This document shows positions 4,137 through 53,612 of a stretch of 64,000 bases of DNA, in pieces (positions within the stretch are counted from its first letter, which is position 1; each line of letters begins with the position of its first letter). A model generated the notes under the pieces. That model saw nothing but the letters and a program-made list of their open reading frames with translations, did not search any database and was not told the origin of the DNA. The position numbers were made by a program, and so were the translations under genes. Where the stretch lies: assembly GCA_963677495.2 (NCBI GenBank), contig CAXXOU010000004.1, positions 640,001-704,000 of the forward strand, given 5' to 3'. This DNA is from Candidatus Cloacimonadales bacterium (GTDB taxonomy: Bacteria > Cloacimonadota > Cloacimonadia > Cloacimonadales > JAFGVF01).

Positions 4137-4505
4137 CAGTGCAATTTGCAATAACTTACCGCATTTCAGGGAGTTTATCGGCCTGATAAGGCTACGGACT
4201 TCCTAAAATGCACTCCGAAGTCGCATGTACCTGATTTCTTTCTCGCGTCACGCTATCGCTGCAACGCAAGTCCGAAAGAGACATACACAGTGCCTTTTTC
4301 AATAACTTAGCTATATTTATTGCCCTTTGTACTCGCTTTTACTGCACTATCTATCAACGCACTGTGTCTGCACTGCGCACGCACTGTGAAGGCACTGCTA
4401 ACCCACTGTTTCACTGGGTGCACAGTGCGTGCACAGTGGGAAAACAGTGGGAAGACTTCGATTTGGTAAAGAGCTTACTCAAAGTTTGCGATATCGCAAA
4501 AGAGA
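4137..4505 (+). repeat. Dispersed ~370-bp non-coding element, copy A (11-nt-phased CACTG/CAGTG array)
   Basis: Aligns by eye with 24684-25002 (+) and 42457-42826 (-). CACTG at 4360, 4371, 4382, 4393, 4404, 4412; CAGTG at 4423, 4434, 4445. Confidence 0.9.
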
Positions 4506-4681
4506 TACAACTGTAAGATGACCCAGGAAGAAGTGATTCACAACGAAGTGGGAATCGCTAATTCCGATTACTCTAAGTCAGGCTGTCAATGGCAGTGAGA
4601 AATGGTACACGATGGCAGTGAAAAGTGGTACAAAACTGCCAACCTTTAAAAATGACTACTTCAAGACAGTTTGGAGTAGGT

Positions 4682-6157
4682 ATGATTGGAGTAGAAGTGT
4701 ATCATTCAATAAAAACTATGCATAAGCAAGGGCATAGTCAGCGTAAGATCGCAGAGGAGTTGTCTCTATCAAAGACAACAGTAGGTAAATACATAAATAT
4801 GACACTTGATGAGTTCATGGAACTAATAAACAATAGCATTCGTGAAAGCAGTTTTGCCATATGTGAGCAATATGTCCGCGAAAGGCTTAGCAAATATCCA
4901 CGATTAAGAGCTAGTGTACTATATTTAGAAGTTAAGAAAAAGTTCCCTGAGATAAAAGCAAAAGACAGAGCTTTCCGAGATTTTGTTCGTAAGCTAAAGC
5001 AGACTTATCCTGTCGATAAATACCGTAATTATGCAGTAATCGAGACGGCTCCCGGTGTTCAGGTTCAAGTTGATCCAGGTGAGATGAAAGTAGTTTTGGG
5101 TAATAAACGTCAAAGAGTTTATTTTATAGTTTTTGTGCTTTCCCACTCGCGTCAAAGCTATGTCCATTGGAGCACAACACCATATAACACATCAAGGTTT
5201 ATTGAAGCTCATCGTGAAGCTTTTATCTATTTTGAAGGTATCCCTTCAGAGTGTGTTTACGACCAGACAAAGCTTGTAGTAATACAGGAACGCTATCGGG
5301 AAGTAATCTTAAATAATCAGTTCCATCAGTTTGCAGCAAAAACGGGCTTTCATCCTCATGTATGCGAAGGCTATGATCCACAAAGCAAGGGTAAAGTAGA
5401 GCGTAATGTCTCAGAAGTAAAGCATGGCTTTATGTATGGCAAAGAGTTCAAAGACCTGGCAGACCTGCGTTCACGCGGACTTGAGTGGCTTTTACACTTT
5501 AACGGCAGAACCCATGGCACAACCCGTAAAGTACCATCAGAAGTATGGCAAGAAGAGAGGTTAAAGCTAAAAGATATTCCAGAGTTTATCTTCACTTTAG
5601 AAGTTCGTAATGCAGATAAAACAGGCTTAATCTCGTATGAGGGTAATAAGTACTCTGTTCCATTAGAGTATCAGCGAAAACAGGTATATGTGCAAAAAGA
5701 AAAGAGCACTTTAGTGGTGATGGATATTTATACAAGAAAGGAAATCTGCCAACATGAGCTATGCACAGAAAAAGGCAAAATCATCAAAAACACTAATCAT
5801 TATCGGGATTTTACGGTAGTGCTACAAGAGCTTATTGAGCGAGTAAAGGATGAGATGAGTGAATATATCCAAGGAGAAGAACTAATCCAGAGGCTTGTTA
5901 ATGATAACCCTAAAATAGCAAGGGATCAGTTGAGAGCCTTAAGCAAGTTTAAGCGTAACTATGAAACAGATGTATGGGAGTCAGTGCTTCCTGAGGTAAT
6001 GACTCTTTCGCATGTAAAGGCAACAGCCATAGAGAAGCTTCTGAATGCAAAAGTAAGACAAATGAAGCTAAATGAATTATCAGAATCAGAACCACAACAA
6101 GACTCAGAGAGTTCATTAATAGAGCGCTCATTAGATGACTACATGAAGGTGTTATAA
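4682..6157 (+). CDS. istA: IS21-family DDE transposase IstA
   Basis: N-terminal HTH, ETAPGVQVQVD, YDQ.K, PQSKGKVER motifs. GGAG SD precedes ATG 4682. Confidence 0.95.
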   Translation: MIGVEVYHSIKTMHKQGHSQRKIAEELSLSKTTVGKYINMTLDEFMELINNSIRESSFAICEQYVRERLSKYPRLRASVLYLEVKKKFPEIKAKDRAFRDFVRKLKQTYPVDKYRNYAVIETAPGVQVQVDPGEMKVVLGNKRQRVYFIVFVLSHSRQSYVHWSTTPYNTSRFIEAHREAFIYFEGIPSECVYDQTKLVVIQERYREVILNNQFHQFAAKTGFHPHVCEGYDPQSKGKVERNVSEVKHGFMYGKEFKDLADLRSRGLEWLLHFNGRTHGTTRKVPSEVWQEERLKLKDIPEFIFTLEVRNADKTGLISYEGNKYSVPLEYQRKQVYVQKEKSTLVVMDIYTRKEICQHELCTEKGKIIKNTNHYRDFTVVLQELIERVKDEMSEYIQGEELIQRLVNDNPKIARDQLRALSKFKRNYETDVWESVLPEVMTLSHVKATAIEKLLNAKVRQMKLNELSESEPQQDSESSLIERSLDDYMKVL

Positions 6158-6158
6158 G

Positions 6159-6890
6159 ATGATAGAGATAACTAAAACATACATCAAAAGGGCTCGTTGT
6201 ACTCATATTTTGAATACTCTTGAAAGTGCAGTTTTAGAAGCAGAGAAACAGAATATGACTTATCTGGAGTTCGTACATTATCTATTTGAAAAAGAGAACT
6301 CAGGAAGGAATCAAACCAATATCAACAGAAGACTTAAACAGGCTCACATCCCGGTAATAAAGACCTTTGATGAGTTCGACTATGCTTATCAACAAGTAAT
6401 AACCAAAAGACAAGTAAAGGAGTGGAAGAACTTTGTCTGGCTGGAGCAGAGGAGGAATATAATTTTAATGGGACCTCCGGGAGTAGGTAAGACTCATGTT
6501 GCAACAGCACTCAGTTATGAAGCAATAAAGGCAGGCTATAAGGTGGTGTTTTATAATCTGAACAACCTTATCGAAGAACTTGTACTAGCTGAAGCAGATA
6601 ACAACATAGATAAATATCTAAGCAATATAGCCAAGAATGATCTGATAGTTATAGATGAGATGGGGTATCTTCCTCTCCAGACAAAGGCAGCTAATCTGTT
6701 CTTTAGACTCATCCATCTCTTATACGAATTTAGATCAGTAATCATAACATCGAATAGGTTGTTTAATGAATGGGGAGCTATTTTTAACGACAATGTGATA
6801 GCAACTGCTATTCTTGATAGATTACTCCATCACTCACAACCAATTACAATGCTCGGAGATAGCTTTAGACTAAGGAATTTTCAAAAATGA
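6159..6890 (+). CDS. istB: IS21-family AAA+ helper ATPase IstB
   Basis: Walker A GPPGVGKT, Walker B IVIDEMGY, AILDRLLHH motif. Confidence 0.96.
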   Translation: MIEITKTYIKRARCTHILNTLESAVLEAEKQNMTYLEFVHYLFEKENSGRNQTNINRRLKQAHIPVIKTFDEFDYAYQQVITKRQVKEWKNFVWLEQRRNIILMGPPGVGKTHVATALSYEAIKAGYKVVFYNLNNLIEELVLAEADNNIDKYLSNIAKNDLIVIDEMGYLPLQTKAANLFFRLIHLLYEFRSVIITSNRLFNEWGAIFNDNVIATAILDRLLHHSQPITMLGDSFRLRNFQK

Positions 6891-7083
6891 AGACTGTACC
6901 ATTTTTAAATGCCAAACTGTACCAATTTAAAATGCCATTGACAGTCAGGCTCGTTCTCGTCACAAGAAACTTCACTTATCAGCTATGTGTTCAAAGGTAC
7001 TTAGTTATAACGCAAATTCGAAAAAAGATTTGACACTTACAAGTACTAATTGATGTTTAGAAACACCCTATGTATAGAGGGTT

Positions 7084-7099
7084 TGGAACGCGAATTGCA
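7084..7099 (+). promoter_or_regulatory. Putative sigma-54 (-24/-12) promoter
   Basis: TGGAACGCGAATTGCA fits GG-N10-GC and is one mismatch from TGGCAC-N5-TTGC. It lies 34 nt upstream of ATG 7134. Confidence 0.55.
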
Positions 7100-7133
7100 T
7101 ATAATTGAAAATATATAGTAAGTTGGAGGAATA

Positions 7134-18019: not shown

Positions 18020-19280
18020 GTTCCGTAAGGACAGAACAACTTGTGCCCTAGTTAGCTGATTATGGCTCCTGAAAATGCTTAATTAAACGTATGTTGTGGA
18101 TACACCTGAGGGCTTAAGATGTTAAGCCCCTACATGTACTACGACTCTCCAGATCGGAAATTGCTACAGCTATTTCGCTCCCATTCCTCTGCTATAATTG
18201 CTATACATTAGATATCTTAATCTTATCAAATTCGAGTCTAAAACCTGTTAAAGAATAACTACATTTCAATAGGGTTTCAATAGGTGTCTCCTATCTGAGT
18301 GTTAAAGATTGTAACAGAGCAGTGACAGTTTCATGATGTTGAGATTCCCTTAAAAGTTTTCTCATTTTATTCTGACGGATCTCTGCAAAAAGTCAGAAAT
18401 CCACCCCTACTTTGCTCCCGCCCCTCTCGGGGCTCTCTCGGGGGTAGGCGGGGTAGGTCCCCGAGTGGTCCCGGAGAGGAGCAGGGGTGGATACTTCACT
18501 TTCGGTTGACCTTGAGCAGACTTATTTCTGCCGATTTGCCCTTGAGCAATAAAAACAGAGCGGAAATATATCACTCATAATCAGCTTACTAAATTCTCAC
18601 TTCTCAAGTGGGTATTATGTGAGTGTTGAGTGGGGATTGAGTGAGTGATGAGTGAGAATTGCTCATGGGCGTAACTTGGGAATAAAGAGAATATGCCACA
18701 GATTTCTCAGATTATAAAGACTTGAAAACTATGATTTGGTATAGATCAATTTACACACTTTTTAGAATACTCCCCAGATTATCTCAGATATATGTATTTC
18801 GACATCGACGGTGCACGTCGAAACGTAGGACACGCTGCTAGCTTGTCCGCTTAGCAGAGCTAAGCCCCGCCACTGAAGTTAATTAGTATGATTTACTGAA
18901 GCTCTTTAGTAATTATCTTCAGGTTCAGTCTCGTAAAATACAGCTCTGTCGAGCTGTGGGCAAGCAGGCTGCATGCCCTACGTGACAGCCCTGAATGGGC
19001 TGAATATGAATAGCCCCGGGTTTTATGAACCCGGGGTCAAGTATCTCAAAAAACATTTAGAACCCTGAAGGGGTTCAACGATTCCTTGACAAAGAAAATG
19101 ATGCTTCTTAAATAAAGACATAACCAAAGGGTAGACCTACGGGTTTGCCCTTTTTCCTAATTTCCCTTTTGGCCTATCGGGGCGAAGCCTTTGGCGAAGA
19201 CCGAAGGGGTGCCATTGTAAACGGCGGGGTGGTAAAGTAACCCCTCACCTTAATCCTCTCCCCAAAGGGGCGAGGAGACA
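18020..19280. repeat. Intergenic mosaic of palindromic/REP-like modules and 11-nt-phased arrays
   Basis: No ORF of 60 aa or more. Contains GTAG/GTAA-footed hairpin pairs (18024-18134, 18824-18982), phased arrays (18400-18490, 18592-18660) and a TAGC three-hairpin module (18986-19078). Confidence 0.7.
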
Positions 19281-21720: not shown

Positions 21721-22401
21721 CTTATAGCCTATAGCCTATAGTTAAGCTGTCACCATAGCGACCGAATGGGAGTCGGGTCAATAGCGGACATGTGGCATAA
21801 TTCATAACTATGAGTCCAACTTGTTTCAGATTTAGAAAAGAAGTCCGTTTTCGCTCGTAAACTTCGTTCTGACAAACTCCTTTTCTAAACCTGAAACTCG
21901 CTATGACTCCAATGATAAGGTGTGATTCGCTAATTCCGTCATTCGAAGCAGTTTTCGTTCTCGTGTAAGTCTGAAGTTGTGTGACAAGACAAACCTACAT
22001 AGTAGGTTAAATCCATAATATTGCATATTTCGTTCTCGCACCACACTTCGCTGCGGTGCAAGTCCGAAGGCTATATCTCGGGCGATTCCAAAAAATCAAT
22101 TCGTGTAACCACTTTTAGTCCAAAATGACAGTACTATATAATAGAGGATGTCAAAACAGAAGAGATCGTCATCCGGGTTTCTATTCACTTTACATGAAGA
22201 TGTGGTGGAATGTGCACAAAGATGGAGATGAAGAAATTCATCGCCTTCTTAATACTAGTTTCCCAAATCTCCATATAATGGATAAACCAAAGAAACTCTC
22301 TGCTCTCAAGCTCTCAACAACTAAAATCAGATAATATAAATTGACACATTGAATTGACATTATAATATCAACTGTTGTTGATTAGAGTTTGTGAGGAGTA
22401 G

Positions 22402-24683: not shown

Positions 24684-25002
24684 CAGTGGGATTTGCAATA
24701 ACTTACTGCATTTCAGGGAGTTTGCCGGTCTGATAAGGCAACGGACTTCCTAAAGTGCACTCCGAAGTTGCTATTCGCCCATCTCCCTTTGGTCGCTATA
24801 GCTCCAGCTTCCGATTTAGTTACACAGTGCCTTTTACAATAACTTAGCTATCTTTATTGCCCTTTTTACTCTCTTTTACTGCTCTATGCAGCAACGCGCT
24901 GTGTCTGCACTGTGCACCCACTGTGAAGGCACTGCCAACCCACTGTTTCACTGGGTGTACAGTGCGTGCACAGTGGGAAAACAGTGGGATGATTGCGTTT
25001 TG
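24684..25002 (+). repeat. Dispersed ~370-bp element, copy B (3'-truncated)
   Basis: High similarity to copy A (4137-4465), including the phased CACTG/CAGTG array. Confidence 0.9.
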
Positions 25003-25212
25003 TCTTATGGCTTGTATCAACTGCATAGATATTTTGTTATATTGGAAGAAATGAGTCGTAATGAAATGTAATCGCCAACTCCGGAACACGAAGGTTGATT
25101 TGTTCTAGCGATAAATTATTGTTATGACGACTGTCCATAGTTCTCGCATCAAGAACCTTTTCTCAAAGCTTCTCCATGATAAGACACTTTAAAATGCAAT
25201 TGGTTATCTCAT

Positions 25213-33417: not shown

Positions 33418-33837
33418 AAGACCTCCTGTATGTAATTAGTAATTAGTAATTATGAATTAGTAATTTGGGGAGCAATGTTCCCCGTGTTTGTCATTTATAC
33501 TATATGCTTTTTGAAGGGCAAGAAAAAGATTAATAATCTTACTTGCACCAGTCTTCACTTAAAAGCTACGCCCTGGAAGGTCGCAGTGAAACGTGGGGCG
33601 TGGAAGACCTTTATTCAGACTTGCACCGCAACGAAGCATGGGGCGAGGATGAAATCAAGCACTCTCAGAATCAATAATGATCGCTGATTACACAGAATCA
33701 CTCAGCGAAGTAATAATACGAAGTATAACAACATATTTCTCACTTGAGAGACTTAGTATTAGAATACATTCGACCCACTTCGGAGTCGGTTAAGTGTAAC
33801 TACAATAGAGTCATTGCAAATGCTGTGCTCTCTTTTA

Positions 33838-33946
33838 ATTCTCGGGAATCACACGGGACTCTCCCGGGAATCTCTCGGGAATCTCTCGGGACTTTGCCCG
33901 AGAAAGTCTCTTTTTATTCCCGACACATTCCTGCATAAGTCACGGG
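33838..33946. repeat. 11-nt-phased CGGGA/CCCG array
   Basis: CGGGA at 33843, 33854, 33865, 33876, 33887. Inverted CCCG/CCTG/CACG at 33897, 33919, 33930, 33941. Confidence 0.85.
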
Positions 33947-34196
33947 GATTATGATAGGGAAATCAAACAACGATGTAATAGTCAACCGAAGGGATGGTTG
34001 TATAAGATTTTTTTGTTGCTTACAGCTTTTATTGTATGTCTATGTTATCTAGAAGAAAATGATAATTGGTAGTAAACTGTTCGAGAAGACAACTAACTCT
34101 TGGTATCTGTAGCATATGTAGCGATTTTACTTTACAAAAACAGTGTTAATATTTTCCTGCAATCAGAATAAATATAATGCTTTAAGGAGTCGTCTT

Positions 34197-37839: not shown

Positions 37840-37887
37840 TAGCGGCGATTTTTCGCAGTTTGCTCCGCTATATAAATTTGCTAAAGT
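37840..37887 (+). ncRNA. SAM-II-type riboswitch aptamer upstream of metK
   Basis: P1 TAGCGG/CCGCTA, GATTT loop, TTGC, pseudoknot AGTTTG/TAAATT, 3' GCTAAAG. Context upstream of metK fits. Confidence 0.75.
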
Positions 37888-37905
37888 GTACGTGTAAAAA
37901 ATTTT

Positions 37906-37938
37906 GCCGACTTTAGCATGCTGAAGTCGGCTTTTTTT
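37906..37938 (+). terminator. Leader terminator (riboswitch expression platform)
   Basis: GCCGACTTTAGC-AT-GCTGAAGTCGGC followed by T7. The 5' arm is complementary to the aptamer 3' end. Confidence 0.85.
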
Positions 37939-37966
37939 ATTTAAAAATTAGAAAGGAGGTCCTGAT

Positions 37967-39136: not shown

Positions 39137-39153
39137 TTTGTTATAACCAATTT

Positions 39154-39183
39154 AAAGACTGTGAGCATTCACAGTCTTTTTTT
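39154..39183 (+). terminator. Intrinsic terminator of metK
   Basis: AAAGACTGTGA-GCAT-TCACAGTCTTT followed by a T-run. Confidence 0.85.
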
Positions 39184-39230
39184 ATTGACTTACAATTCTA
39201 ATGCATTTGAATACTTTAAGAGGTATAGAA

Positions 39231-41008: not shown

Positions 41009-41285
41009 AAAAAATCTCCTAACACCAAAGATAAAAACCACGTAAATGACAATATTAATTAAAGCAAGCCTTTTTTGTGTGTAGTATGTTAACAGCGGTA
41101 AGTTCTTAATAGTGTAGTGATATACATATTAATCTTTGAGTAATAGCAACTGGTCAGGTCTTAAATGATGCATCACGCAAAGTTTATATTATACCAAGCA
41201 AGCATAAATATTAAAAAAGTACTTGACTTGCGTGTAAGTGAAGGATATTCAGTTATATGTTCTCTCGAACCATTAGGAGGAATTA

Positions 41286-42338: not shown

Positions 42339-42456
42339 AAACTCTAATCATTACACAAAGAATAAGGGATGCATCTGCATCCCTTATTCTGTTTTCAGCG
42401 AAATTGTGTCCTGAAAATTTAATATAACACATCGATATTGAAAAAAACTGATTTCA

Positions 42457-42826
42457 ATTTCTTTTGCGATAATGCAAACTTTAACTAAACTCTTTACCAA
42501 AACGCAGTCATCCCACTGTTTTCCCACTGTGCACGCACTGTGCACCCAGTGAAACAGTGGGTTGACAGTGCCTTCACAGTGCGTGCGCAGTGCAAACACA
42601 GTGGGTTGGTGGATAGCTTAGTAAAAGAGAGTAAAAAGGGCAAAAAATATAGCTAAGTTATTGCAAAAGGCACTGTGTATATCTATCTCGGACTTGCTCC
42701 GCAACGAAGTGTAGGGCGAGAACGAAATCCTAGGATATGCGACTTCGAAGTGCTTTTTAGGAAGTCCGTTGCCTTATCAGGCCGACAAACTCCCTGAAAT
42801 GCCGTAAGTCATTGTTATTTGCACTG
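42457..42826 (-). repeat. Dispersed ~370-bp element, copy C (inverted)
   Basis: Its reverse complement aligns with 4137-4505. Confidence 0.9.
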
Positions 42827-42924
42827 CGTACGTAGACTTGATGCATCTATATTGTGAAGAATGATTCAATAATATTAGAGAGAAATGATTTGACAATATT
42901 CCGAATATTTATAAATTCACCTTA

Positions 42925-42958
42925 AACCTTTAATCGAGTCCAGAGAGGCTGAAAGGAG
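42925..42958 (+). promoter_or_regulatory. PyrR-binding stem-loop in the pyr operon leader
   Basis: CCTTTAAT-CG-AGTCCAGAGAGGCT-GAAAGG matches the PyrR consensus ARUCCNGNGAGGYU. TTGACA promoter element at 42890. Confidence 0.85.
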
Positions 42959-43053
42959 AAAAATATGAATCGTATAATCTTAATGCTACATAAGCATAAA
43001 TCCCCTATTTCTTTAAACACCATTACTATATCCAATTATGCAAGGAGTATTTC

Positions 43054-43992
43054 ATGGAAAGCAATCTAAACTTCCTTGGACGCTGCATGTATGACCTCGA
43101 CGACTATTCTGCCGAAGAGATTATTCATATTCTTGAAGCTTCCAAAATTATGAAGGAGATCAATCAGAGGGAATACAAAAAAGTACCAACTCTGAGAGGA
43201 AAGACCGTTTGTACTCTATTCTTCGAGAATAGTACAAGAACACTGATGTCATTTGAACTTGCTGCCAGTCGTTTAAGTGCTGACCTGGTTAGCTTCAATT
43301 CCAGTACTTCATCTCTTGCAAAAGGCGAAAGCTTGCAAGATACTGTTTATACTCTTGATGCAATGGGTATAGATTGCTATATCATTAGGCATAGTTATCC
43401 CGGAAGTCCACAGCTTGTGCATAAGTATTCAAACAAGCCAGTACTTAACGGTGGTGATGGACGTCATGCTCATCCGACTCAGGCATTATTGGATATGTAC
43501 TCAATTTATGAACAGCGTGGTTCTCTTGATGGTATGAAGATTGCTATCGTAGGCGATATTGCTCATAGTCGTGTTGTTCGATCTAACCTTATTGGAATGA
43601 AGAAACTTGGAGCAGATGTTACTATTTGTGGACCAAGAACTCTTATGCCGGGTAAAATGGAAGAAGTTTACGGTTGTAAAGTTAGCTATAACTTAGAGGA
43701 AGCTCTCAAAGATGCTGATGTTGTTATGGGTTTAAGAATGCAACTTGAACGTCAGGCAGAAGGTTTATTCCCAAATCTTGAAGAGTATACAAAACATTAT
43801 GTTCTTTCAAAAGAAACTTTAAAGTTTGCCAAGAAAGATGCTCTAATCATGCACCCCGGTCCAATGAATCGTGGTGTTGAAATTTTGCCTGAAATAGCTG
43901 ATAGTGATCGTTCATTGGTTTTACAACAGGTAGCCAACGGTGTTGCCGTAAGAATGGCCCTGTTGTATCTCATGCTCGGTGGAAAGATGTAG
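43054..43992 (+). CDS. pyrB: Aspartate carbamoyltransferase catalytic subunit
   Basis: FFENSTRT, HPTQALLD, HPGPMNRG. Confidence 0.97.
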   Translation: MESNLNFLGRCMYDLDDYSAEEIIHILEASKIMKEINQREYKKVPTLRGKTVCTLFFENSTRTLMSFELAASRLSADLVSFNSSTSSLAKGESLQDTVYTLDAMGIDCYIIRHSYPGSPQLVHKYSNKPVLNGGDGRHAHPTQALLDMYSIYEQRGSLDGMKIAIVGDIAHSRVVRSNLIGMKKLGADVTICGPRTLMPGKMEEVYGCKVSYNLEEALKDADVVMGLRMQLERQAEGLFPNLEEYTKHYVLSKETLKFAKKDALIMHPGPMNRGVEILPEIADSDRSLVLQQVANGVAVRMALLYLMLGGKM

Positions 43993-44001
43993 GAGGAAAC
44001 A

Positions 44002-45282
44002 ATGAAGATAGTAATACAAAATGGTAAAGTATATCAGAACGGTTCATTTGAAAGAAAAGATATCCTCGTGAACGGGGAATTGATAGAGAAGATAGATACT
44101 GCAATTATTGCAGCTGATGCAGATAAAGTTATCGATGCAGAAGGTCAGATAGTAGTACCCGGTTTTATTGATTTACATGCTCATTTAAGAGATCCGGGAC
44201 AAGTTTACAAAGAGGACATTGTTACAGGTACTAAAGCTGCAGCTAAAGGTGGATTCACTACTGTTTGTGCTATGCCTAATACAGAACCTGTAGTAGATAG
44301 TGTTGCTAATGTTGAATATATTAGTAGAAAAGCTGCTGAACTTGGCTTTGCAAGAGTAAAAGTTATTGGTGCAATGACTAAGAAATCAGAGGGTAAAGAA
44401 CTATCCTTGATGTCCACAATGAAAGATGGTGGCATTGTAGCTGTAAGCGATGACGGACGTTGTGTTCAGAATACAAAGCTTATGCAGAACTGTATGAAGT
44501 ATGCCGGTAACTATGAGTTACCTGTAATTATTCACCCTGAAGACTATGATTTAGCCGGAAAAGGTCAGATTAATGGTGGCAGATACTCTACACAACTTGG
44601 TTTAGGGGCAATACCAGGCCTTGCAGAAGACATTATCGTTTCAAGAGACATCATGTTGGCTAGAAGCACTGGTTGCCACCTTCATGTCGCTCATGTATCA
44701 ACTGCTAGAAGTATCCAGATGATAAGAGATGCTAAAGCTGAAGGTTTAAATGTTACAACCGAAGTTACTCCTCATCATCTAACATTAACACATGACAAGC
44801 TTGTGACATTTGACACAAACTATAAATGTAAACCTCCTCTTAGAGATGACAAAGATAGATTAGCATGTATTGAAGGTCTTCTTGATGGTACAATTGATTG
44901 TATTGCAACTGATCATGCTCCACATGCAGATTATGAGAAAGAGAGAGAGTTCAACCTTGCACCATTCGGAATCAATGGCTTTGAAGCCGCATTTGGTTCG
45001 ATGTATACAGATCTTATTACTAAAGATGTACTACCTTTAAACATAGTTATAGATGCTCTTACCAGGAAACCTGCTGAATTCCTTAAGTTAAATTCGGGGG
45101 AATTGAAAGAAGGACTTCTGGCTGATATTACCGTTATTGATCTTGAAAGAGAGTTTACTCTTACTGAAGATAATATGCAATCAAAATCAACAAATACACC
45201 GTATATTAATGTTCCGTTAAAGGGGACGGTTACTAATACAATATGTGGTGGCAAGGTAACCTGGGAAATAGAGAATGTATAA
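44002..45282 (+). CDS. pyrC: Dihydroorotase (class I)
   Basis: DLHAHLRDPG, MPNT.P, EVTPHHL, ATDHAPH. Confidence 0.96.
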   Translation: MKIVIQNGKVYQNGSFERKDILVNGELIEKIDTAIIAADADKVIDAEGQIVVPGFIDLHAHLRDPGQVYKEDIVTGTKAAAKGGFTTVCAMPNTEPVVDSVANVEYISRKAAELGFARVKVIGAMTKKSEGKELSLMSTMKDGGIVAVSDDGRCVQNTKLMQNCMKYAGNYELPVIIHPEDYDLAGKGQINGGRYSTQLGLGAIPGLAEDIIVSRDIMLARSTGCHLHVAHVSTARSIQMIRDAKAEGLNVTTEVTPHHLTLTHDKLVTFDTNYKCKPPLRDDKDRLACIEGLLDGTIDCIATDHAPHADYEKEREFNLAPFGINGFEAAFGSMYTDLITKDVLPLNIVIDALTRKPAEFLKLNSGELKEGLLADITVIDLEREFTLTEDNMQSKSTNTPYINVPLKGTVTNTICGGKVTWEIENV

Positions 45283-46030
45283 AACCTGTACAATAACCGA
45301 CTACCGAGAAATGGGAGTTGATTACTTCGTACTGACTATTTGTGAAGCTGACCTGGCACAGAATGCTGTTGCCGGGCAGTTTTTCAATTTAGGCTACACT
45401 AATGGTGATGTTCCAAGACTAAAGAAACCAATAAGCATTTATGATGTAGATGGTGATAGAATCTCATTTATGATAAAGAAACTTGGGAAAGGTACTGAAG
45501 CCTTATCAAAACTAAGAGCTGGTGATGAGATGAAAGTACTGGGTCCGCTTGGTAACGGATTCCCATTATTAGTAGATAGAAATGTCCTTTTGATTAGTGG
45601 TGGAGTTGGTTATCCACCAATGGTACATTTGAAGAAAGAGCTTAAGAAGTGTACTATAACTCATCTGCATGGTGGCAGAACAGAAACAGATATCTTTCCT
45701 TGTGATATTGCATATACAGAAGATGGTTCAAAAGGAGAGACAGGTCTTGTTACAAAGGACTTGGAGAAGATAATCAATGAGAAGAACATCAATGTCATAT
45801 ACACATGTGGCCCTGATCCAATGATGCATGCTATCGGTAAAATCGCAAAAGCAATGAAAGTTGAATGTCACTTATCACTTGAAGAGTACATGGCATGTGG
45901 AATTGGAGCATGCTATGGTTGTGCTGTTCGAATAAAAGCTGATAATGAGGATGGTTTTGTGAATAAACGAGTTTGTAAAGATGGACCTGTCTTTGAGATA
46001 AACGAGTTATGGGTGGCAGAAAATGAATAG
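45275..46030 (+). CDS. pyrK: Dihydroorotate dehydrogenase electron-transfer subunit
   Basis: GPLGNGF, GGVG.PP, MACGIGACYGC...C.DGPVF [2Fe-2S] motif. Confidence 0.95.
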   Translation: MYKTCTITDYREMGVDYFVLTICEADLAQNAVAGQFFNLGYTNGDVPRLKKPISIYDVDGDRISFMIKKLGKGTEALSKLRAGDEMKVLGPLGNGFPLLVDRNVLLISGGVGYPPMVHLKKELKKCTITHLHGGRTETDIFPCDIAYTEDGSKGETGLVTKDLEKIINEKNINVIYTCGPDPMMHAIGKIAKAMKVECHLSLEEYMACGIGACYGCAVRIKADNEDGFVNKRVCKDGPVFEINELWVAENE

Positions 46031-46928
46031 ATTAGCTACAGGTCTGGGAAGACTTAAACTTAAAAATCCGGTCACTGTTGCTTCAGGTACTTTCAGTTAC
46101 GATTACTCTGATTATGTAGATTTCAATAAGCTAGGTGCAATCGTAACGAAGACTATTACAAAAGCTCCGAGAGCAGGAAATCCGACTCCTCGTTTGTTTG
46201 AAACAGAAGCCGGATTACTTAACTCGATTGGTTTGCAAAATCCCGGTCTTGAAGGTTTCGTAGTAAATGAATTACCGAAATACAATAAATGGGAAGCTCC
46301 ATTATTAGTTAGCCTTTCCGGTTCAAGTATTGAAGAGTTCTGTGAGATTGTAGAACGAATGGAAGAAGAAAACTGTGCCGGTTATGAGATAAACGTATCA
46401 TGTCCCAATGTGAAGAATGAGGGTATTGCTTTTGGTGTTGACCCGATTGTAGTAAATGAGTTAACCACAAAGTTGCGCAAGATAACTGATAGAGAACTGA
46501 TTATAAAATTATCTCCAAACGTAACCGATATAGTATCTGTAGCGAAAGCTGCCCGAGATGGTGGTGCTGATAGCTTAGCTCTTATTAACACACTTTTAGG
46601 TATGGCAATTGATTGGAAAACAGGGAAGAGTCGCATTGCAAAAGGCATTTGTGGTTATAGTGGTATCTCAATCAAACCGGTTGCACTAAGCAATGTTTAT
46701 AGAGTCGCTAAAGCTGTTGATATACCTATTCTTGCAATGGGTGGAATCTCGACCTTTGAGGATGCATTGGAATTCTTCTATGCAGGTGCAAGTGTGATAG
46801 CAGTTGGTACTGAGAACTTTATGAACCCACTTGCTACAGTTGACCTTATAGAAAATCTTGACAAACATCTTAAAGAAAAGAACCAATCACTACATGAGAT
46901 TATTGGAAAAGTATCCGGTATTGTTTAA
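46023..46928 (+). CDS. pyrD: Dihydroorotate dehydrogenase 1B catalytic subunit
   Basis: ASGTF, GNPTPRL.ET, NSIGLQNPG, NVSCPNV, KLSPNVTD. Confidence 0.96.
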   Translation: MNRLATGLGRLKLKNPVTVASGTFSYDYSDYVDFNKLGAIVTKTITKAPRAGNPTPRLFETEAGLLNSIGLQNPGLEGFVVNELPKYNKWEAPLLVSLSGSSIEEFCEIVERMEEENCAGYEINVSCPNVKNEGIAFGVDPIVVNELTTKLRKITDRELIIKLSPNVTDIVSVAKAARDGGADSLALINTLLGMAIDWKTGKSRIAKGICGYSGISIKPVALSNVYRVAKAVDIPILAMGGISTFEDALEFFYAGASVIAVGTENFMNPLATVDLIENLDKHLKEKNQSLHEIIGKVSGIV

Positions 46929-47679
46929 TATCAAACGAAATATTGTTACATATAGATTAGGGTTAGCAATAACCCTAATTTTGCTTTTTAGTATCACAAA
47001 TACTAATGCCATTCAGCTTCCAAACTTTAACAATTATCAGGCCGGATCAGAGCGAAAAGAAGCTTTTTATCGATTCTTCATACCTATCATAACTAAAGAG
47101 AATGAAAAGATTCTTAAAGAACGTAATTTCATGCTATCATTCAAGTTTAAATATGATAATGGAATTGACATCTCTGTTACTGAGATTAGAAAGTTTCATG
47201 AGTTAGCGAAAAGGTACAAACTTAAAACCAAGAATTTTGATAAACCTGAGTTTTGGAACGAAGTGAATAAGCGTGTTGACCATATACCATTGGAGATTGC
47301 TCTGACTCAAGCTGCAGTGGAATCAGGCTGGGGAACTTCAGGCTTTGCGAGACAAGCAAACAATATCTTTGGAGTATGGACATTTAAACAGGGAACAGGG
47401 ATTGTCCCTAAAGAACGAGCTCCTGGTGCAACCCATGAAGTTAGAATTTATGATAGTGTTGAAGCTTCTATTTCAAGTTACATGCTGAACTTAAATACTA
47501 ACAAAGCCTATCGTAAGTTCAGAGATATAAGATGGGAGCTTAGATTAGAGGGTGTAGCCATGGATCCTGTGTTAATGTGTGAAGGATTAAAATACTATTC
47601 TCAAAAGAAGCTGGAATATGTTAATCTTCTCCAGAAAATGATAAGAAAAGATAGCGACTTGATATTAGAAAATAAGTAA
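46921..47679 (+). CDS. Glucosaminidase-domain (GH73, Bax-like) protein; start uncertain
   Basis: QAAVESGWGTS.FARQANNIFG and SYMLNLNT..AY motifs; N-terminal TM or signal sequence. Confidence 0.85.
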   Translation: MFNIKRNIVTYRLGLAITLILLFSITNTNAIQLPNFNNYQAGSERKEAFYRFFIPIITKENEKILKERNFMLSFKFKYDNGIDISVTEIRKFHELAKRYKLKTKNFDKPEFWNEVNKRVDHIPLEIALTQAAVESGWGTSGFARQANNIFGVWTFKQGTGIVPKERAPGATHEVRIYDSVEASISSYMLNLNTNKAYRKFRDIRWELRLEGVAMDPVLMCEGLKYYSQKKLEYVNLLQKMIRKDSDLILENK

Positions 47680-47691
47680 AAGAAGAGAGTT

Positions 47692-48657
47692 ATGGAAATT
47701 ATTAAAACTTTGCGTGAAGAGATGAATCTCGAAGCAGATGCGATAAAAGAAACAGCGAATAGGTTAGATGAAGAAGCAAAAAAGGCTTTTGAACTTATAA
47801 GAGATTGTAAAGGTAAAGTAGTTGTGACCGGTATGGGTAAGACCGGGCTAATAGGCAGGAAAGTTGCTGCAACTCTAGCAAGTACCGGAACTACATCAAT
47901 CTTTCTGCATGCTGCCGAAGGTATTCATGGTGATTTGGGTATGCTTACAGAAGATGATGTAATCATAGCAATCTCATATTCCGGTAACACAAAAGAAGTG
48001 TTAGACTTAATCCCTTACCTAAAGTTTTTGAAGTTGCCGATCATTGCAATTACAGGTAATATAGAGTCTCAATTAGCTATCTCTTCTGATGCTGTTATCG
48101 ATGGGTTTGTCCCACCTGAAAACGAACCTTTAGGTTTAGTTCCAACCTCTTCTACAACTGTTGCTCTGGCTATCTGTGATGCATTGGCCATAGCACTATT
48201 AAGAGCCAGAAACTTTGAAGAGAAAGATTATGCTTTATTCCATCCCGGTGGAACAATAGGTAAGAAGCTATTGCTTAGAGTAAATGATTTAATGCACAAA
48301 GGTATGGATTTACCTATAGTATCTGCAGAAACTCAGTTGTTTGAAGCAATCTCAATTATGACTGAGAAGAAGTTGGGTTGTACAACAGTCATATCAGAAA
48401 GCATTATGATTGGTATTATCACGGATGGAGACCTCAGACGAATAATGCAGAAGAGGAAAGGAGAACTTCTCGAGTTACCAGTGACAGAAGTCATGACTAA
48501 AGATCCTGTTTCTGTTACTCCAGATATTTTAGCTGTAGAGGCAATAATTATTATGGAAAAGCACAACATAACAATGCTTCCTGTTGTTGATAATGATAAA
48601 CATCCTGTTGGGCTCCTACATATGCATGATTTAATTAAAGCCGGTGTAGTAGGATAG
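47692..48657 (+). CDS. kdsD: Arabinose-5-phosphate isomerase, KpsF/GutQ family (SIS + 2 CBS)
   Basis: VVTGMGK, HGDLG, PTSST, FHPGG, CBS pair. Confidence 0.92.
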   Translation: MEIIKTLREEMNLEADAIKETANRLDEEAKKAFELIRDCKGKVVVTGMGKTGLIGRKVAATLASTGTTSIFLHAAEGIHGDLGMLTEDDVIIAISYSGNTKEVLDLIPYLKFLKLPIIAITGNIESQLAISSDAVIDGFVPPENEPLGLVPTSSTTVALAICDALAIALLRARNFEEKDYALFHPGGTIGKKLLLRVNDLMHKGMDLPIVSAETQLFEAISIMTEKKLGCTTVISESIMIGIITDGDLRRIMQKRKGELLELPVTEVMTKDPVSVTPDILAVEAIIIMEKHNITMLPVVDNDKHPVGLLHMHDLIKAGVVG

Positions 48658-48658
48658 A

Positions 48659-49096
48659 ATGAAGCTTATACTTCAAAGAGTAAGTAATGCATCTGTGACA
48701 GTTGATAACAAAGTGATCTCATCCATAGGGAAGGGGTTGCTAGTTCTTTGTGGTGTCGGAAAGGATGATACGAACGAAGTATTACCATGGTTAGCAAACA
48801 AGATGGTTAATCTAAGAATCTTTGAAGATGAGAACGGTAAGATGAATAAATCCTTACTTGATATTGATGGTGAGGTTATCATTGTCTCACAATTCACACT
48901 TTATGCTGATTGCTCTCGAGGAAGAAGACCTGATTTCCTCAAATCAGCCAAGCCGGAGCTAGCTGAAAAACTATATGACAGGTTCTGTGAAGAGGTTGAG
49001 TTTTTTGGTCTTAATGTAAAGAAAGGTATCTTTGGAGCAGATATGAAAGTCAGTTTGCTCAATGATGGTCCTATAACAATTACCCTTGAAAAGTAG
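48659..49096 (+). CDS. dtd: D-aminoacyl-tRNA deacylase
   Basis: QRV..ASV, SQFTL, NDGP.T motifs. Confidence 0.96.
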   Translation: MKLILQRVSNASVTVDNKVISSIGKGLLVLCGVGKDDTNEVLPWLANKMVNLRIFEDENGKMNKSLLDIDGEVIIVSQFTLYADCSRGRRPDFLKSAKPELAEKLYDRFCEEVEFFGLNVKKGIFGADMKVSLLNDGPITITLEK

Positions 49097-49235
49097 TATA
49101 CTCACTCAAAAAATGCATATACTCAAATAAACAGTAAAAGTAGTAGACAATTTGGAACAATTCTTACAAATGTAGTTACGATTAAAGACTATTGGAGTAA
49201 GGATTATTAAAAAAGGTGTATTAGTATCCATAGCC

Positions 49236-51122
49236 ATGATGATTGTGTCATTTATTTTGGCAGAAGTAAATCATTATGTGACTATTGACACATTGCGTAT
49301 TGCAGCAGATAAAGCCAAGATTGAACAACAATGGAATGTTGTTGTTCAAAAATATCTTGATATATCTTCTCTATACCAAATGACCGGTGATGTAGATAGC
49401 CTTCTTTACTACTCCGAAAGAGCTTACGAAGTTTCAGAACAGAACAAACTTGATGAACTAATGGCTCACTCTTTAAACCATATTGGTAGCTATTATAATT
49501 ACACAGGAGATTACAGTAGAGCTTTAGAGTATTTCCACAGGGCATTGCCTCTTTACATGGAAGAAAAGGATAGTCTACGTGTCTCATCAATCTATGAAAA
49601 TATTGGCAAAACGCATAAAGATTTAGGAAACTATTCGAATGCAATTACATATCTTCTCAAAGCTACTCAAATGCTTGAACGCAACGAGAACCTTGATATA
49701 CGTCCATCCATATACACAACGTTGGGTTCAATATTCTACAGGATGAAAGATTATCGTAGCATGCTACGTTATCTCATCCAATCTCAGCAGATGCTTGAAG
49801 ATGAACGCGTTTTAACAACCGAACATGCAATCCTGTTCAATGAGTTCGGAAAATATCATGATGGTACAGGAGACTTAAAATCAGCTAAGAAGAATTTCCA
49901 GAAAACTGTGGATATTAGTAACGAGATTGGTTGGAAACTAGGTGTTTCAACCGGGTTAAGTAATCTAGCTGACATCTTTTACTTAGAAGGTGATCTCGAC
50001 AAAGCTCTTAGTAATCATCTCCGAATTCTTGATATTGATCGTGAAATTGAGAACAACTATGGAATAGTGAAAGATTTTCTTTTTATCAGTGAAATCTATT
50101 TTGATATGAGTATGTTTAAAACTGCGGAAGCATACGCTGATTCTTCACTTAGCATTGCCCTTGATAAGGGTATGGCTGCCGAGATATCTGCTGTATTAAA
50201 TCTTCAAAGTAGAATCTATCAGAAACAGAACAGAATTAAGGACGCCTTCGATAAATTCTATCTCTTCTATACATACGAAGATAGTTTAGAAAATATTGAA
50301 TATAAAAAACATCTGAGTGACCTTTCAGAAAAATATCAAGTTGCTGTGAATGAACGCAGATTGCTAGAGGAGCAAACTGAGAAGAAGATGCTCAAGCAAC
50401 GTTCTTTATTGCTATTGTATGCTTTAATCACGATGATCATGATAATTCTTACTGTTATAGTGTTGAGTTTCCAGCGTAATCTTAAGAATAGATATAGGAC
50501 TCTGATGCTAAAACAACAGCTCTTCAGGGCACAGATGAATCCTCATTTTATATTCAACTCATTAAGTGCAATCCAACATTACATCTTAAAGAATAAAACA
50601 TCACTAGCAGCTGAGTTCCTTGGAGCTTATTCCAGGCTTATGAGACTTATCCTTGAAAGCTCAGATTGTAATCTGATTTCATTAGAAAAGGAACTTGATA
50701 TTGTCAGAATCCAGTTAGAACTTGAGAAGCTAAGATTTGGTGACAAGTTTGTTTATAAACTGGATATTCAGGAAGATATTGAATTTGAGGATTTATATGT
50801 TCCTCCAATGTTATTACAACCTCTAGTTGAGAACTCTATTAAACATGGTTTCAGCGACATCAATTATCAAGGAGAAATCTATGTGTCTGTATGTTATGAG
50901 GATAACAAACTTACACTTATTGAAACTGACAATGGATCCGGAACGATGTCTCAAGAGTTTTATAAGAAATCTCATGCCCTTAGTATTATGAAACAACGTC
51001 TGGAACTATTAAAGAATGTAAAAAATATTGACACAGAATTAAATGTTTGCACAAATCAATCAAAGGGAATCAAAACGGAGATTATAATCCACAATCCTGA
51101 AAAACTCATACAGGAGCTATAA
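49236..51122 (+). CDS. TPR-repeat sensor histidine kinase, LytS/YesM type; true start may be slightly upstream
   Basis: TPR repeats, TM helix, AQMNPHFIFNSL, QPLVENSIKHG. Confidence 0.9.
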   Translation: MMIVSFILAEVNHYVTIDTLRIAADKAKIEQQWNVVVQKYLDISSLYQMTGDVDSLLYYSERAYEVSEQNKLDELMAHSLNHIGSYYNYTGDYSRALEYFHRALPLYMEEKDSLRVSSIYENIGKTHKDLGNYSNAITYLLKATQMLERNENLDIRPSIYTTLGSIFYRMKDYRSMLRYLIQSQQMLEDERVLTTEHAILFNEFGKYHDGTGDLKSAKKNFQKTVDISNEIGWKLGVSTGLSNLADIFYLEGDLDKALSNHLRILDIDREIENNYGIVKDFLFISEIYFDMSMFKTAEAYADSSLSIALDKGMAAEISAVLNLQSRIYQKQNRIKDAFDKFYLFYTYEDSLENIEYKKHLSDLSEKYQVAVNERRLLEEQTEKKMLKQRSLLLLYALITMIMIILTVIVLSFQRNLKNRYRTLMLKQQLFRAQMNPHFIFNSLSAIQHYILKNKTSLAAEFLGAYSRLMRLILESSDCNLISLEKELDIVRIQLELEKLRFGDKFVYKLDIQEDIEFEDLYVPPMLLQPLVENSIKHGFSDINYQGEIYVSVCYEDNKLTLIETDNGSGTMSQEFYKKSHALSIMKQRLELLKNVKNIDTELNVCTNQSKGIKTEIIIHNPEKLIQEL

Positions 51123-51862
51123 TGCGTGCAATAATTATTGATGATGAAAAGCTTACTCGAGAACTAATAAAAGAGATACTCACTTCTGAATTCTTAGGCA
51201 TCGAAATCATAGGTGAAGCTAATGATTACCAATCAGCTATTGATTTAATCGACTCAACAAATCCTGAGCTTATGTTACTAGATATAAATCTTGGGAACAG
51301 AACTATCTTTGAAGTGCTGGAAAAAGCCAACCAAACCAATGCTAAACTTATTTTTATTACTGCCTATTCTGATTATGCTGTTAAAGCAATCAAATACAGT
51401 GCTTTCGATTATATCCTTAAGCCAATTGTTCCTTCAGAACTTGTCAGAGCGGTCAACAAAGCTGTGCAATCAAGCAGTGATGAACAGGACCAGCAACTAT
51501 CTGTTTTAACTAAAAATATCACTAACCCTCAGAAGATAGTACTCAAGACATCAGACAAGATGCATATCGTGGATTTAAAAGATATTATATATTGTGAAGC
51601 AGATAATAATTACACTATCTTCCATCTTAAGAATGGTAAGAACCTCATTCTTTCGAAGAGTTTAAAAGTGTATGAAGAACTCTTGAACGATAGCTCATTC
51701 TTCAGAGTACACCAGTCATATCTTGTGAATCTGAACTCAATTATAACCTTCGAAAAACACGATGGGGGATACCTGGTTATGGCTAATGGTCAGAATGTCC
51801 CGGTTTCTACTACAAAGAAGAAGAAACTTATTAATCATCTGCAAACTATTTATAAGAGTTAA
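51122..51862 (+). CDS. LytTR-family response regulator
   Basis: IIDDE, LLDI, FITAY, YILKP, FFRVHQSYLVN. Its start overlaps the kinase stop. Confidence 0.95.
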   Translation: MRAIIIDDEKLTRELIKEILTSEFLGIEIIGEANDYQSAIDLIDSTNPELMLLDINLGNRTIFEVLEKANQTNAKLIFITAYSDYAVKAIKYSAFDYILKPIVPSELVRAVNKAVQSSSDEQDQQLSVLTKNITNPQKIVLKTSDKMHIVDLKDIIYCEADNNYTIFHLKNGKNLILSKSLKVYEELLNDSSFFRVHQSYLVNLNSIITFEKHDGGYLVMANGQNVPVSTTKKKKLINHLQTIYKS

Positions 51863-51901
51863 TACCGGGTACGCAGGCATCTTGCCTGCACCTGACAATG
51901 T

Positions 51902-52358
51902 TGTAGTGCAAGTGTCCCCACTTGCACATAGCTCGATAGAGCTATAATCGGAAATTCAATCGTGTTAATCAAGTAGTATTGATGCATTTTATCTACTTTT
52001 AGCGATTTGCAGTCAGTGGCATTTGCCGACTCTGTCGTCACAGCAATTCAGGAGAATCGCAGTACATTGTACCCCGATCACCCCTGATCGGTCTAATTTG
52101 TAGTGCAAGTGTCCCCACTTGCACATAGCTCGATAGAGCTATAATCGGAAATTCAATCGTGTTAATCAAGTAGTATTGATGCATTTTATCTACTTTTAGC
52201 GATTTGCAGTCAGTGGCATTTGCCGACTCTGTCGTCACAGCAATTCAGGAGAATCGCAGTACATTGTACCCCGATCACCCCTGATCGGTCTAGTTTGTAG
52301 TGCTTGTGTCCCCACTTGCACATAGCTCGTTTAGAGCTATGGTCGGAAATTCAATCGT
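51902..52358. repeat. Tandem array of a 197-bp REP-containing unit (about 2.3 copies)
   Basis: Units start at 51902, 52099 and 52296. Each has GTAG-TGCAAGTG-TCCC-CACTTGCA; the two full units also carry GTAC-CCCGATCA-CCCC-TGATCGG. Confidence 0.92.
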
Positions 52359-52415
52359 ACTTTATCTAATCTAATGCTTAATATTTCTCGATAATCTCCT
52401 TCCTTCGTTATTCCT

Positions 52416-52502
52416 TATCCTAAAAGGATAATCCAATGTTAGCCATGGTGCTTTAGCCCATGGATAGGAATAGAAAAACAATCCGACCCTGAAGGGGTCG
52501 CC
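52416..52502 (+). repeat. TAGC three-hairpin module, near-identical to 55584-55670
   Basis: TATCCTAAAAGGATA...TAGC-CATGG...CCATGG...CGACCCTGAAGGGGTCG. Confidence 0.88.
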
Positions 52503-52505
52503 CAA

Positions 52506-52958
52506 TCACACTATCAAATGACTAAATTCCTCATATCGCGGAACCATGGGGATTAATCCTGTTTCCACAGCTTCTTTAATTGTTTTAACCGGTAAATCAT
52601 TATCAAAAACCTCCTGTGGGGTGATTGTTTGCAAATCAATACCCGGTAACGCTTTCTTTAGCATATACATCAGTTTCATATTCATCGATGGACCGTTTAA
52701 TCTGGTCCCATGTCCCATTAGCATGACATTCAAACGATCTGCGTAATTGCGTAAATCGCAAAGATAATCAGGACTCAGGTCCTTGTAATACTGTGAAAGG
52801 TGACGAGTTGTGTTTCCGATGATTGTATTCTGCTCGGAATGTTTTGGAACTACATAGTCGCGTGCATAGCCTTTACCGGTAAACTTATCAACATAATAGA
52901 CAAGTTCGTCCAATTTCCCTGAAAAGGCACCAAACGGTTTCATAAGATTAACTTTCAT
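52506..52958 (-). CDS. Hypothetical 150-aa protein (N-terminus reminiscent of DUF6266-type proteins)
   Basis: GGAG SD. Motif FGAFSGKLDELVYY...YARDYVVP..S.QN. The family resemblance is from memory and has not been searched. Confidence 0.7.
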   Translation of the reverse strand: MKVNLMKPFGAFSGKLDELVYYVDKFTGKGYARDYVVPKHSEQNTIIGNTTRHLSQYYKDLSPDYLCDLRNYADRLNVMLMGHGTRLNGPSMNMKLMYMLKKALPGIDLQTITPQEVFDNDLPVKTIKEAVETGLIPMVPRYEEFSHLIV

Positions 52959-53259
52959 TCTGGATCTCCATCAGATTAAGTTAGTTAATTGGTTTTGAGA
53001 GAATGTGTTACACATCGTAGGGACATAGCACGCTATGTCCTTCGGAGTTTAACTCAATTCTTTAGATAGTATCACTATCCCTTACTACATTTTGTCTTCA
53101 AACGAGGATATAGCATGCTATATCTTGCATTAGAATCAATTATTTCTCTCAAGAAATATTTTCGACTACCAACATTTAATGAACGCACGTAAATAACCAT
53201 CCATGAGACAATTAACTACTAAACATGCCCCAAGTCAAGAAGAAACTTCCGACAAGCTA

Positions 53260-53288
53260 AAAGTTATCCACACAATGTGGATAACTTT
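53260..53288. promoter_or_regulatory. Inverted pair of perfect DnaA-box consensus 9-mers
   Basis: TTATCCACA (53264-53272) and TGTGGATAA (53276-53284), 3 nt apart, within a 13-bp-arm palindrome. Confidence 0.55.
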
Positions 53289-53612
53289 GGCCTTCGCCAA
53301 GGAGGGTCCTTGGTGGCTCCTTGGTGGTTCCAACCCGGTTCCATGTTTTTGATTGGGGGCGTGGATAGGGCAGAAAAATTGGAAAAAATTGGCGAGTAAC
53401 TGGCGACTAATTCCGTTATGGCAGAATTAAGATTAAGTTAGATAGATAGATACTACTCCAAAAAATTACCCAATAATCGGGACAGAAAACATCTGCCACA
53501 TATAAATTGGTATATTCTCAGTCCAGAATGCTAATAAAGTACTTGACATCTATATTACTATGCAATGTTATTATGTTCTTGTTTTTTAGATGAAACAAGA
53601 AGGTGAATGTAA

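Follow-up and report, generated by a model that had tools for sequence, protein, structure and literature searches.

Direct repeats that follow one another at intervals of 11 bp are known from the parC site of plasmid R1, which PMC2241845 describes as runs of about five such repeats, arranged in two arms and bound by ParR with possible autoregulation. REPIN-RAYT systems (repetitive extragenic palindromic (REP) doublets forming hairpins and their REP-associated tyrosine transposases) are presented in PMC3116915 and PMC2817692 as comprising several extragenic palindromic repeat families. Each family goes with one gene for a protein of about 150 amino acids (aa) and has dispersed non-autonomous copies; REP doublets are reported there as randomly distributed. 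Here, we describe arrays of short sequence words with an 11-nt period in a stretch of 64,000 nt from Candidatus Cloacimonadales bacterium (assembly GCA_963677495.2, contig CAXXOU010000004.1, positions 640,001 to 704,000), referred to as the window, and in the genome to which it belongs (G000; 3.41 Mb in four contigs), which the taxa of similar proteins place in Cloacimonadota. The arrays form nine main sequence families. For most of them, a master copy is found directly upstream of a dedicated small gene, which encodes a member of a 150-aa orphan protein family. All families together are evenly spaced in three bacteria from two phyla.

With parC/ParR, for which layout alone was compared, these arrays share 11-bp direct repeats beside a gene for a small protein, the presence of two arms and possible autoregulation. 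They differ in that the second arm is mirrored, that hundreds of gene-less copies occupy the chromosome and that many paralogues are accompanied by different cores; there is no convincing ribbon-helix-helix match either. No gene for a ParM, ParA or TubZ NTPase resides beside the gene in the window; the neighbours of the other paralogues vary. In common with REPIN-RAYT are a gene of about 150 aa for each family, dispersed copies and inverted repeats able to form hairpins. In contrast to REPIN-RAYT, the array is found on one side of the gene only, is phased at 11 bp and is evenly spaced. None of 21 paralogues matched the Y1 HUH transposase model PF01797, and a conserved HUH motif is absent. Membership in REPIN-RAYT fails on enzyme, gene link and distribution. 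A link to RAYT genes was also rejected on the ground that arrays do not cluster around Y1 genes, occurring within 1 kb of 2 of 14 as compared with 21.6% of all open reading frames (ORFs).

Mu cis-immunity is described as strongest near 5 kb and as decaying over 5-25 kb (PMC7350765). Target immunity of Mu, Tn7 and Tn3 resembles our case in the deficit of neighbours over a similar range, which was measured here as standing spacing, but no transposase or AAA+ ATPase is linked to the arrays, and the effect crosses families unrelated in sequence. PINSR of Prevotella intermedia, a repeat found between genes in about 180 copies of about 190 bp, is likewise lineage-specific and without a known mobiliser; as far as the main description goes, neither 11-bp phasing nor a partner gene is mentioned, and three-quarters of its positions are conserved between strains (PMC4755523). 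PMC4060949, in its main account, covers generic repeats only. We found no description of these arrays, their pairing or their spacing in the literature; the supplements accompanying PMC4755523 and PMC4060949 may be relevant to the question of priority. New in the present analysis are the connection of the arrays with the 150-aa family and their even spacing across families.

An earlier note on the window had reported short cores that recur at 11-nt spacing and then flip to the reverse complement, and its positions were borne out. CACTG starts at 4360, 4371, 4382, 4393 and 4404 and is followed by CAGTG at 4423, 4434 and 4445; further copies lie in the same and in the reversed orientation (Table 1). 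Five units of a CGGGA-type core (33843-33887) follow in steps of 11 before CCCG appears, and the (A/T)GTG series at 18607-18651 and the CC series at 53297-53341 exist as claimed. Elsewhere, the phasing proved less strict: CGGGG at 18428 and 18439 and GTCCC at 18457 and 18468 are in step, but a third CGGGG lies 10 nt further on and off step, and the TGG copies past 53341 are badly phased (steps of 8, 18, 10 and 11). At lag 11, all seven cited loci exceed 300 of 300 dinucleotide shuffles. The period is indeed conserved, but the cores, which had been called unrelated, are not all so, because three of the seven loci are copies of one family (family 0). The phenomenon extends genome-wide: in 1025 intergenic stretches, 4-mer matches were 6.9-fold above shuffled DNA at lag 11 and 4.8-fold at lag 22, with other lags at 0.9- to 2.1-fold, and coding DNA had no lag-11 peak in the same analysis. 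An array scan returned 237 lag-11 arrays, 227 of them outside ORFs, while lags 8, 10, 13 and 14 gave 1, 5, 1 and 13, respectively. No Rfam family reached its gathering score within the window.

The 227 intergenic arrays group into families of 61, 38, 30, 27, 24, 18, 10, 6, 6 and 2 members plus five singletons. A module spans about 100-330 bp and consists of a run of direct units, usually with a mirrored run; in family 1, the unit number varies by exactly 11-nt steps in 29 of 31 scored copies. DNA of family 0 has matches in all three congeners and in none of 37 other relatives. Inverted pairs of DnaA-box-like 9-mers number 75 in the genome, and 59 of these lie beside arrays of families 2, 4 and 7.

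The arrays are paired with the paralogous members of a gene family that encodes a basic orphan protein of 150 aa. The genome contains 22 full-length paralogues, one of them in the window, and one fragment. Ten carry a detected array within 1.3 kb upstream, none downstream, and nine genes (a duplicate pair counted once) carry nine different families, for which P is about 0.0008 under random draws. Family 3 was linked via loci L004 and L013 with a second detector. Altogether, 209 of the 227 arrays fall in families with a master copy upstream of a paralogue. Orthologues keep their array, as seen for L019 and L085 and for the window gene and its congener orthologue L078, which has the same upstream module (87% over 84 nt); core sharing is found mainly above 70-80% protein identity.

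The 150-aa family is present in 96 of 151 genomes of the phylum Cloacimonadota, with up to 37 matches in one genome. A set of 152 paralogue loci was assembled from 20 of the 22 loci of our genome, the best matches of 30 genomes and most matches of nine genomes; at a threshold of at least 18 bits, and with loci that are not independent of each other, a lag-11 array was found upstream at 59 of 152 and downstream at 0 of 153, with differing cores. Control lags of 10 and 13 gave 1 of 152 upstream each. A first test of the 30 best phylum matches with a GC-weighted score had yielded one array among 29 upstream regions and one among 29 downstream regions; these loci stem mostly from an array-less clade and are included in the larger set. 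In a quick tree, arrays occur in 52 of 77 rows on one side and in 7 of 74 on the other, a split that is weakly supported. In genome G027 (L094-L120), a divergent clade of the family has expanded to 37 matches, mostly without 11-bp arrays. Upstream of paralogues (e.g., L003, L016 and L019), a TATA..AGAGG motif was noted that may be a dedicated promoter. It is present in 18 of the 152 upstream regions as against 1 of the 153 downstream regions, in many cases with a repeat at about 21-22 nt ahead of it.

As a prediction test, arbitrary 100-kb stretches of eight genomes were searched. Genomes G045, G013 and G014 each contained four arrays per 100 kb, and 11 of these 12 gene-less arrays had their best match in the upstream region of a paralogue in the same genome. 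Genomes G004, G007, G024 and G031, which have between zero and three weak or array-less paralogues, contained none per 100 kb.

The same layout recurs in a second phylum. A search pattern of three TTCGG units plus two mirrored units in 11-bp steps returned at least 120 loci, and 79 of the 80 matches listed belong by title to Bacteroidota. Among the matches listed, twelve arrays are followed by a DUF6266-type gene at a distance of 128-344 nt downstream, and the reverse order is found in none. Starting from the gene, an upstream array was present at 13 of 15 DUF6266 loci, several with new cores, and a downstream array at none; the 15 loci come from five genomes chosen for holding one such TTCGG array. 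In Sphingobacterium lactis, one of two DUF6266 loci has an upstream array. For the TTCGG core alone, matches to the pattern number 205 per strand in S. lactis as against 1 in S. detergens. A literature search returned no paper on arrays upstream of DUF6266. A separate array with a 10-nt period lies beside the 11-nt array upstream of DUF6266 at L300, L301, L303 and L305, and HTH_17-like genes occur near several loci with this added array.

DUF6266 (PF19781) and the 150-aa family resemble each other in array layout upstream of a small basic gene, in gene-less copies and, weakly, in their first 50 residues. They differ in length, DUF6266 having about 213 aa. The 150-aa family is also missed by the Pfam model, and its C-terminal part is predicted to be helical. 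A comparison by hhalign gave E 0.004 at a probability of 8% over about 50 N-terminal residues, a weak similarity, with an atlas score of 0.87. Nine of the top ten hits among 388 ORFs were of DUF6266 type, each individually non-significant; the Pfam cut-off was reached by none of 21 paralogues, and the model had no match in G000. DUF6266 is the nearest named lead for the 150-aa family.

The positions of the arrays relative to each other are not random. Gaps between 217 array-bearing spacers have a median of 13 kb and a coefficient of variation (CV) of 0.62, compared with 0.88-0.96 for random spacers under five null models that rest on crude ORF calls (p ≤0.0025 each); more complete array detection lowered the CV to 0.59. 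Heptamer arrays and four other repeat sets were not significantly regular. Single families are mostly random in spacing, only family 0 being regular (p 0.0075). Gaps below 6 kb between different families make up 9.6% of 188 where about 30% are expected, so that homologous recombination between neighbours is not the whole cause; even spacing among repeats without shared sequence requires a mechanism at the protein level. In the congener G001, the CV is 0.51-0.55, and positions are not shared at syntenic sites. Among the matches listed for S. lactis, the CV is 0.43 for 41 sites on a 1.79-Mb contig, where no gap is below 16 kb and the median gap is 36 kb (p 1e-5 against uniform). Note that the largest array-free gap in our genome, 64.6 kb, extends from the master array of the window (53306) to G000:C4:757905.

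Several observations bear on mobility. A unit of 822 nt that comprises array and gene and ends 5 nt beyond the stop codon has been duplicated at 96.8% identity into different flanks. When 1.2 of the 3.1 Mb of G001 were compared (638 orthologues, median identity 82%), 5 of 30 array-bearing spacers were syntenic, and all five lacked an array in G001. Among array-less spacers, synteny was seen for 403 of 426 short ones and for 18 of 46 long ones (p 0.044 for array-bearing against long spacers). Reciprocally, none of 19 array spacers of G001 was syntenic, compared with 19 of 70 long ones. Array positions are lineage-specific and lie at synteny breakpoints. Retro-mobility was considered and rejected, as no RVT_1 match was found in G000.

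The protein is predicted, with a high predicted local distance difference test (pLDDT) score of 96.5, to consist of three long helices together with a short beta-sheet and, at the C-terminus, further short helices. Array-linked members are basic (mean pI (isoelectric point) 9.1 versus 7.9), and K2, G14, R33, Y72 and L109 show more than 90% conservation. No Pfam, PHROG or PADLOC family and, by sequence, no solved relative was found. Foldseek searches with two models returned no match at E 0.001, and the first model gave a weak match to lambda integrase at E 0.33. Ribbon-helix-helix chains top the VIA list with Z 3.3-4.0 over 43-72 residues, which is within noise. The homodimer prediction score was 0.02. 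No longer fused forms were seen among 8000 scored candidates, which is weak evidence.

Sequence features favour recognition on duplex DNA. The earlier note had offered an A-form RNA hairpin with periodic bulges as one reading, and this found no backing: dyad mismatches in 56 gene-linked arrays are close to random (199 G-T, 155 A-C and 622 others), and neither strand folds consistently better, the sense strand doing so in 31 of 56. Cores exceed spacers both in identity between units (0.63 versus 0.44) and in complementarity across the dyad (0.71 versus 0.60), a difference inflated by the choice of cores as best phases. The greater complementarity than identity of the spacers leaves room for hairpin extrusion. 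Eight of ten strands folded below nearly all shuffles (z -2.3 to -5.6), and the family 7 array folded no better than shuffles. A TATA-like motif was found at eight array-linked loci; in each case, it stands between the array and the gene and may act as promoter. The centre gap is 5-7 modulo 11 in 91 of 107 TTCGG arrays; shared ancestry may account for this.

As an explanation that we put forward tentatively and at a little under even confidence, the arrays would be evenly spaced, gene-less copies of modules, and the protein of each gene would bind its own words, spread its module and keep the copies several kilobases apart. On duplex DNA, the protein would polymerise along the direct repeats in the manner of ParR at the 11-bp parC iterons, the mirrored arm would give rise to a two-fold complex, and the master copy would also control its own gene. 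A recombination activity would copy or exchange modules and reshuffle the chromosome at them. A shared partner would sense bound arrays whatever their core and block insertion within about 6-16 kb, comparable to transposon target immunity. One-to-one gene pairing, 11-nt unit steps and the stronger conservation of cores than of spacers lend circumstantial support to the proposal of the earlier note that the arrays are same-face binding sites and the cis-element of an undescribed system. In its broadest form, which appears possible and somewhat more doubtful, the system would be a new element class of Cloacimonadota and Bacteroidota, in which each of the small paralogous proteins, of a new fold, would recognise an 11-bp word of its own. 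Together, the arrays would be set along the chromosome like tiles, one every 13-35 kb, by sequence-independent spacing; the tiles would serve as recombination junctions, domain anchors or self-marks, and the whole would constitute a naturally diversified, modular protein-DNA code.

A number of findings weigh against this explanation. At the threshold used, 93 of the 152 paralogues lack an array, genome G027 has 37 paralogues and no array in 100 kb, and families 6 and 8 have no master gene in G000; for the family 8 array, there is no match among 155 paralogue upstream regions. Cores common to close relatives show descent, not co-evolution. On the side of the protein, VIA searches with two models recognised no DNA-binding fold (none at Z ≥5, best Z 4.0), no catalytic motif was found, and the putative homology to DUF6266 is weak. 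The phase of core to dyad is weakly conserved across cores (R 0.28, p ~0.05), and the spacers are, as stated above, more complementary across the dyad than identical between units. With regard to position, long array-less spacers are often breakpoints too (28 of 46 in our genome and 51 of 70 in the reciprocal comparison), a mild regularity is also seen in the longest spacers (CV 0.82) and in the long array-less ones (CV 0.84; p 0.02-0.04), and nine array pairs lie within 1.5 kb and share a spacer, counter to strict exclusion. Finally, families 0, 1, 4 and 7, the element ends of which are approximate, show no excess of flanking direct repeats and thus no target-site duplication, which speaks against an assignment to the miniature inverted-repeat transposable elements (MITEs). 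Filled and empty sites had diverged too far from one another for the ends to be defined from them.

The main rival holds that the lattice is selected by the host: the proteins would bind arrays to organise the chromosome, as loop anchors or borders of supercoil domains, or to mark self, and spacing would arise from gain and loss under selection rather than from immunity at insertion. A spacing of about 13-35 kb in three genomes is consistent with this, as is the observation that gene ends with an array here more often have an array in the congener (23 of 117 versus 32 of 302, p 0.023), albeit with a shared family in only four of the 23. DnaA-box-like pairs riding in three families and five divergent paralogue pairs flanking cargo that is partly defence-like from translation point in the same direction. 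We nevertheless regard host selection as rather unlikely: the same-family genomes G004 and G007 and two others have no array per 100 kb, from which it follows that the lattice is dispensable in relatives, S. lactis and S. detergens differ enormously in TTCGG matches, and no syntenic position is common with the congener. Less probable still are hairpins of REPIN or MITE type that are moved in trans by a known transposase (Y1/RAYT or insertion sequence (IS)), with the small gene as a passenger or merely regulated and another protein as binder, for example an HTH_17 excisionase-like one. The scarcity of arrays near Y1 genes and the missing target-site duplication speak against such hairpins, which moreover leave one family per paralogue and cross-family even spacing unexplained. 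They would account for a population structure like that outlined for REPIN-RAYT in PMC3116915, for 14 Y1 matches in G000, for the folding of eight of ten strands and for six HTH_17-like ORFs, one of them confirmed, near TTCGG arrays in Bacteroidota.

Those folding energies, together with the complementarity of spacers across the dyad, could also be due to structured RNA: leaders or small RNAs would form A-form stems interrupted by periodic bulges, to which the protein would bind. With neither G-U nor strand bias, a TATA-like motif between array and gene and a family 7 array that folds no better than shuffles, we rate this as very unlikely. Neutral slippage or decayed coding repeats, with gene link and spacing as by-products, would suit the crowding of G000 spacers with many repeat types and the variation in unit number, but 11 is no multiple of 3, coding DNA is without the peak, and heptamer and other repeats are not evenly spaced. 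This origin is already disfavoured by the upstream-only gene link, which exists in two phyla, the spacing and the master matches, and we consider it scarcely credible.

Table 1. Features of the window and, in the last row, paralogue-flanked cargo loci of the genome.
Feature	Position	Strand	Evidence and remarks
Gene-less family 0 copy (CACTG core), long version; array 4360-4449	4130..4465	+	61 family members; ends from BLAST coverage; 96% over 101 nt to array upstream of L019
IS21-family element (istA-istB), 132 nt from array	4584..6943	+	Pfam; 17 copies with own target duplications
Composite repeat: family 8 array (CGGGG/CCCCG, ~18402-18490) and (A/T)GTG array 18607-18654	18149..18712	.	89% copy at C1:925259; 6 family 8 members
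Fragment of 150-aa family paralogue (array-less clade by sequence)	22125..22334	+	Hidden Markov model E 4e-14, 69 aa
Gene-less family 0 copy; array 24897-24986	24684..25003	+	BLAST coverage, match to master
Gene-less family 5 copy (CGGGA/TCCCG core)	33828..33950	.	18 members; 83% to array upstream of L003
Gene-less family 0 copy, reverse orientation; array 42514-42603	42465..42830	-	Sequence, match to master
Orphan gene of 150 aa, master of family 7; N-terminus weakly DUF6266-like; beta-hairpin and helices predicted	52506..52958	-	22 paralogues; pLDDT 96.5
Inverted pair of DnaA-box-like 9-mers, 3 nt apart, within family 7 module	53264..53284	.	Sequence
Family 7 array (CCTTGG/CC core), master copy ~350 nt upstream of 150-aa gene	53288..53405	.	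6 members
Cargo loci between divergent paralogue pairs	C1:774894-782349; C3:291415-297694; C4:777579-783024; C4:1465698-1474728; C4:1498355-1504079		G000

The IS21 element is a passenger outside the array system; IS21 elements have their own ends and insert into arrays. A near-identical copy is located at 59174-61533, and 10 of the 17 copies in the genome lie within 300 nt of an 11-bp array, compared with 25% of intergenic positions (p 0.0035), some of them inside a module. The five divergent pairs of 150-aa paralogues, one per clade, flank 4-8 kb of cargo, part of which resembles methylase or defence genes as judged from translations. In the composite repeat, the GTG array has a weak match to the upstream region of the congener paralogue L086. 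A Y1 transposase gene resides at 35782-36279. Other repeats at 51900-52340 and 55280-55830 comprise REP-like palindromes and a unit of about 190 nt that occurs twice beyond the stop codon of the master gene. Directly past the master array, two AT-rich ORFs (53613-54836) had no significant Pfam or PADLOC match. An artefact was considered and rejected: contigs of four sequencing runs from one sample, possibly the source of the window and therefore not independent support, showed 0 substitutions over 33700-53690 and no contig joints inside arrays; three of the four have an extra G at 39903, a possible assembly error near the end of the ORF at 39201-39968.

If the proposed explanation is true, it would assign a function to two uncharacterised protein families and account for a large share of intergenic DNA and of rearrangement breakpoints in two phyla. 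Behind the spacing could stand either a lattice that organises the chromosome or an immunity for which no transposase is known. With dozens of natural pairs of protein and core, the recognition code would be testable, and S. lactis, which is cultured and has one gene-linked array and at least 41 copies on one contig, would bring the whole model within reach of bench experiments.

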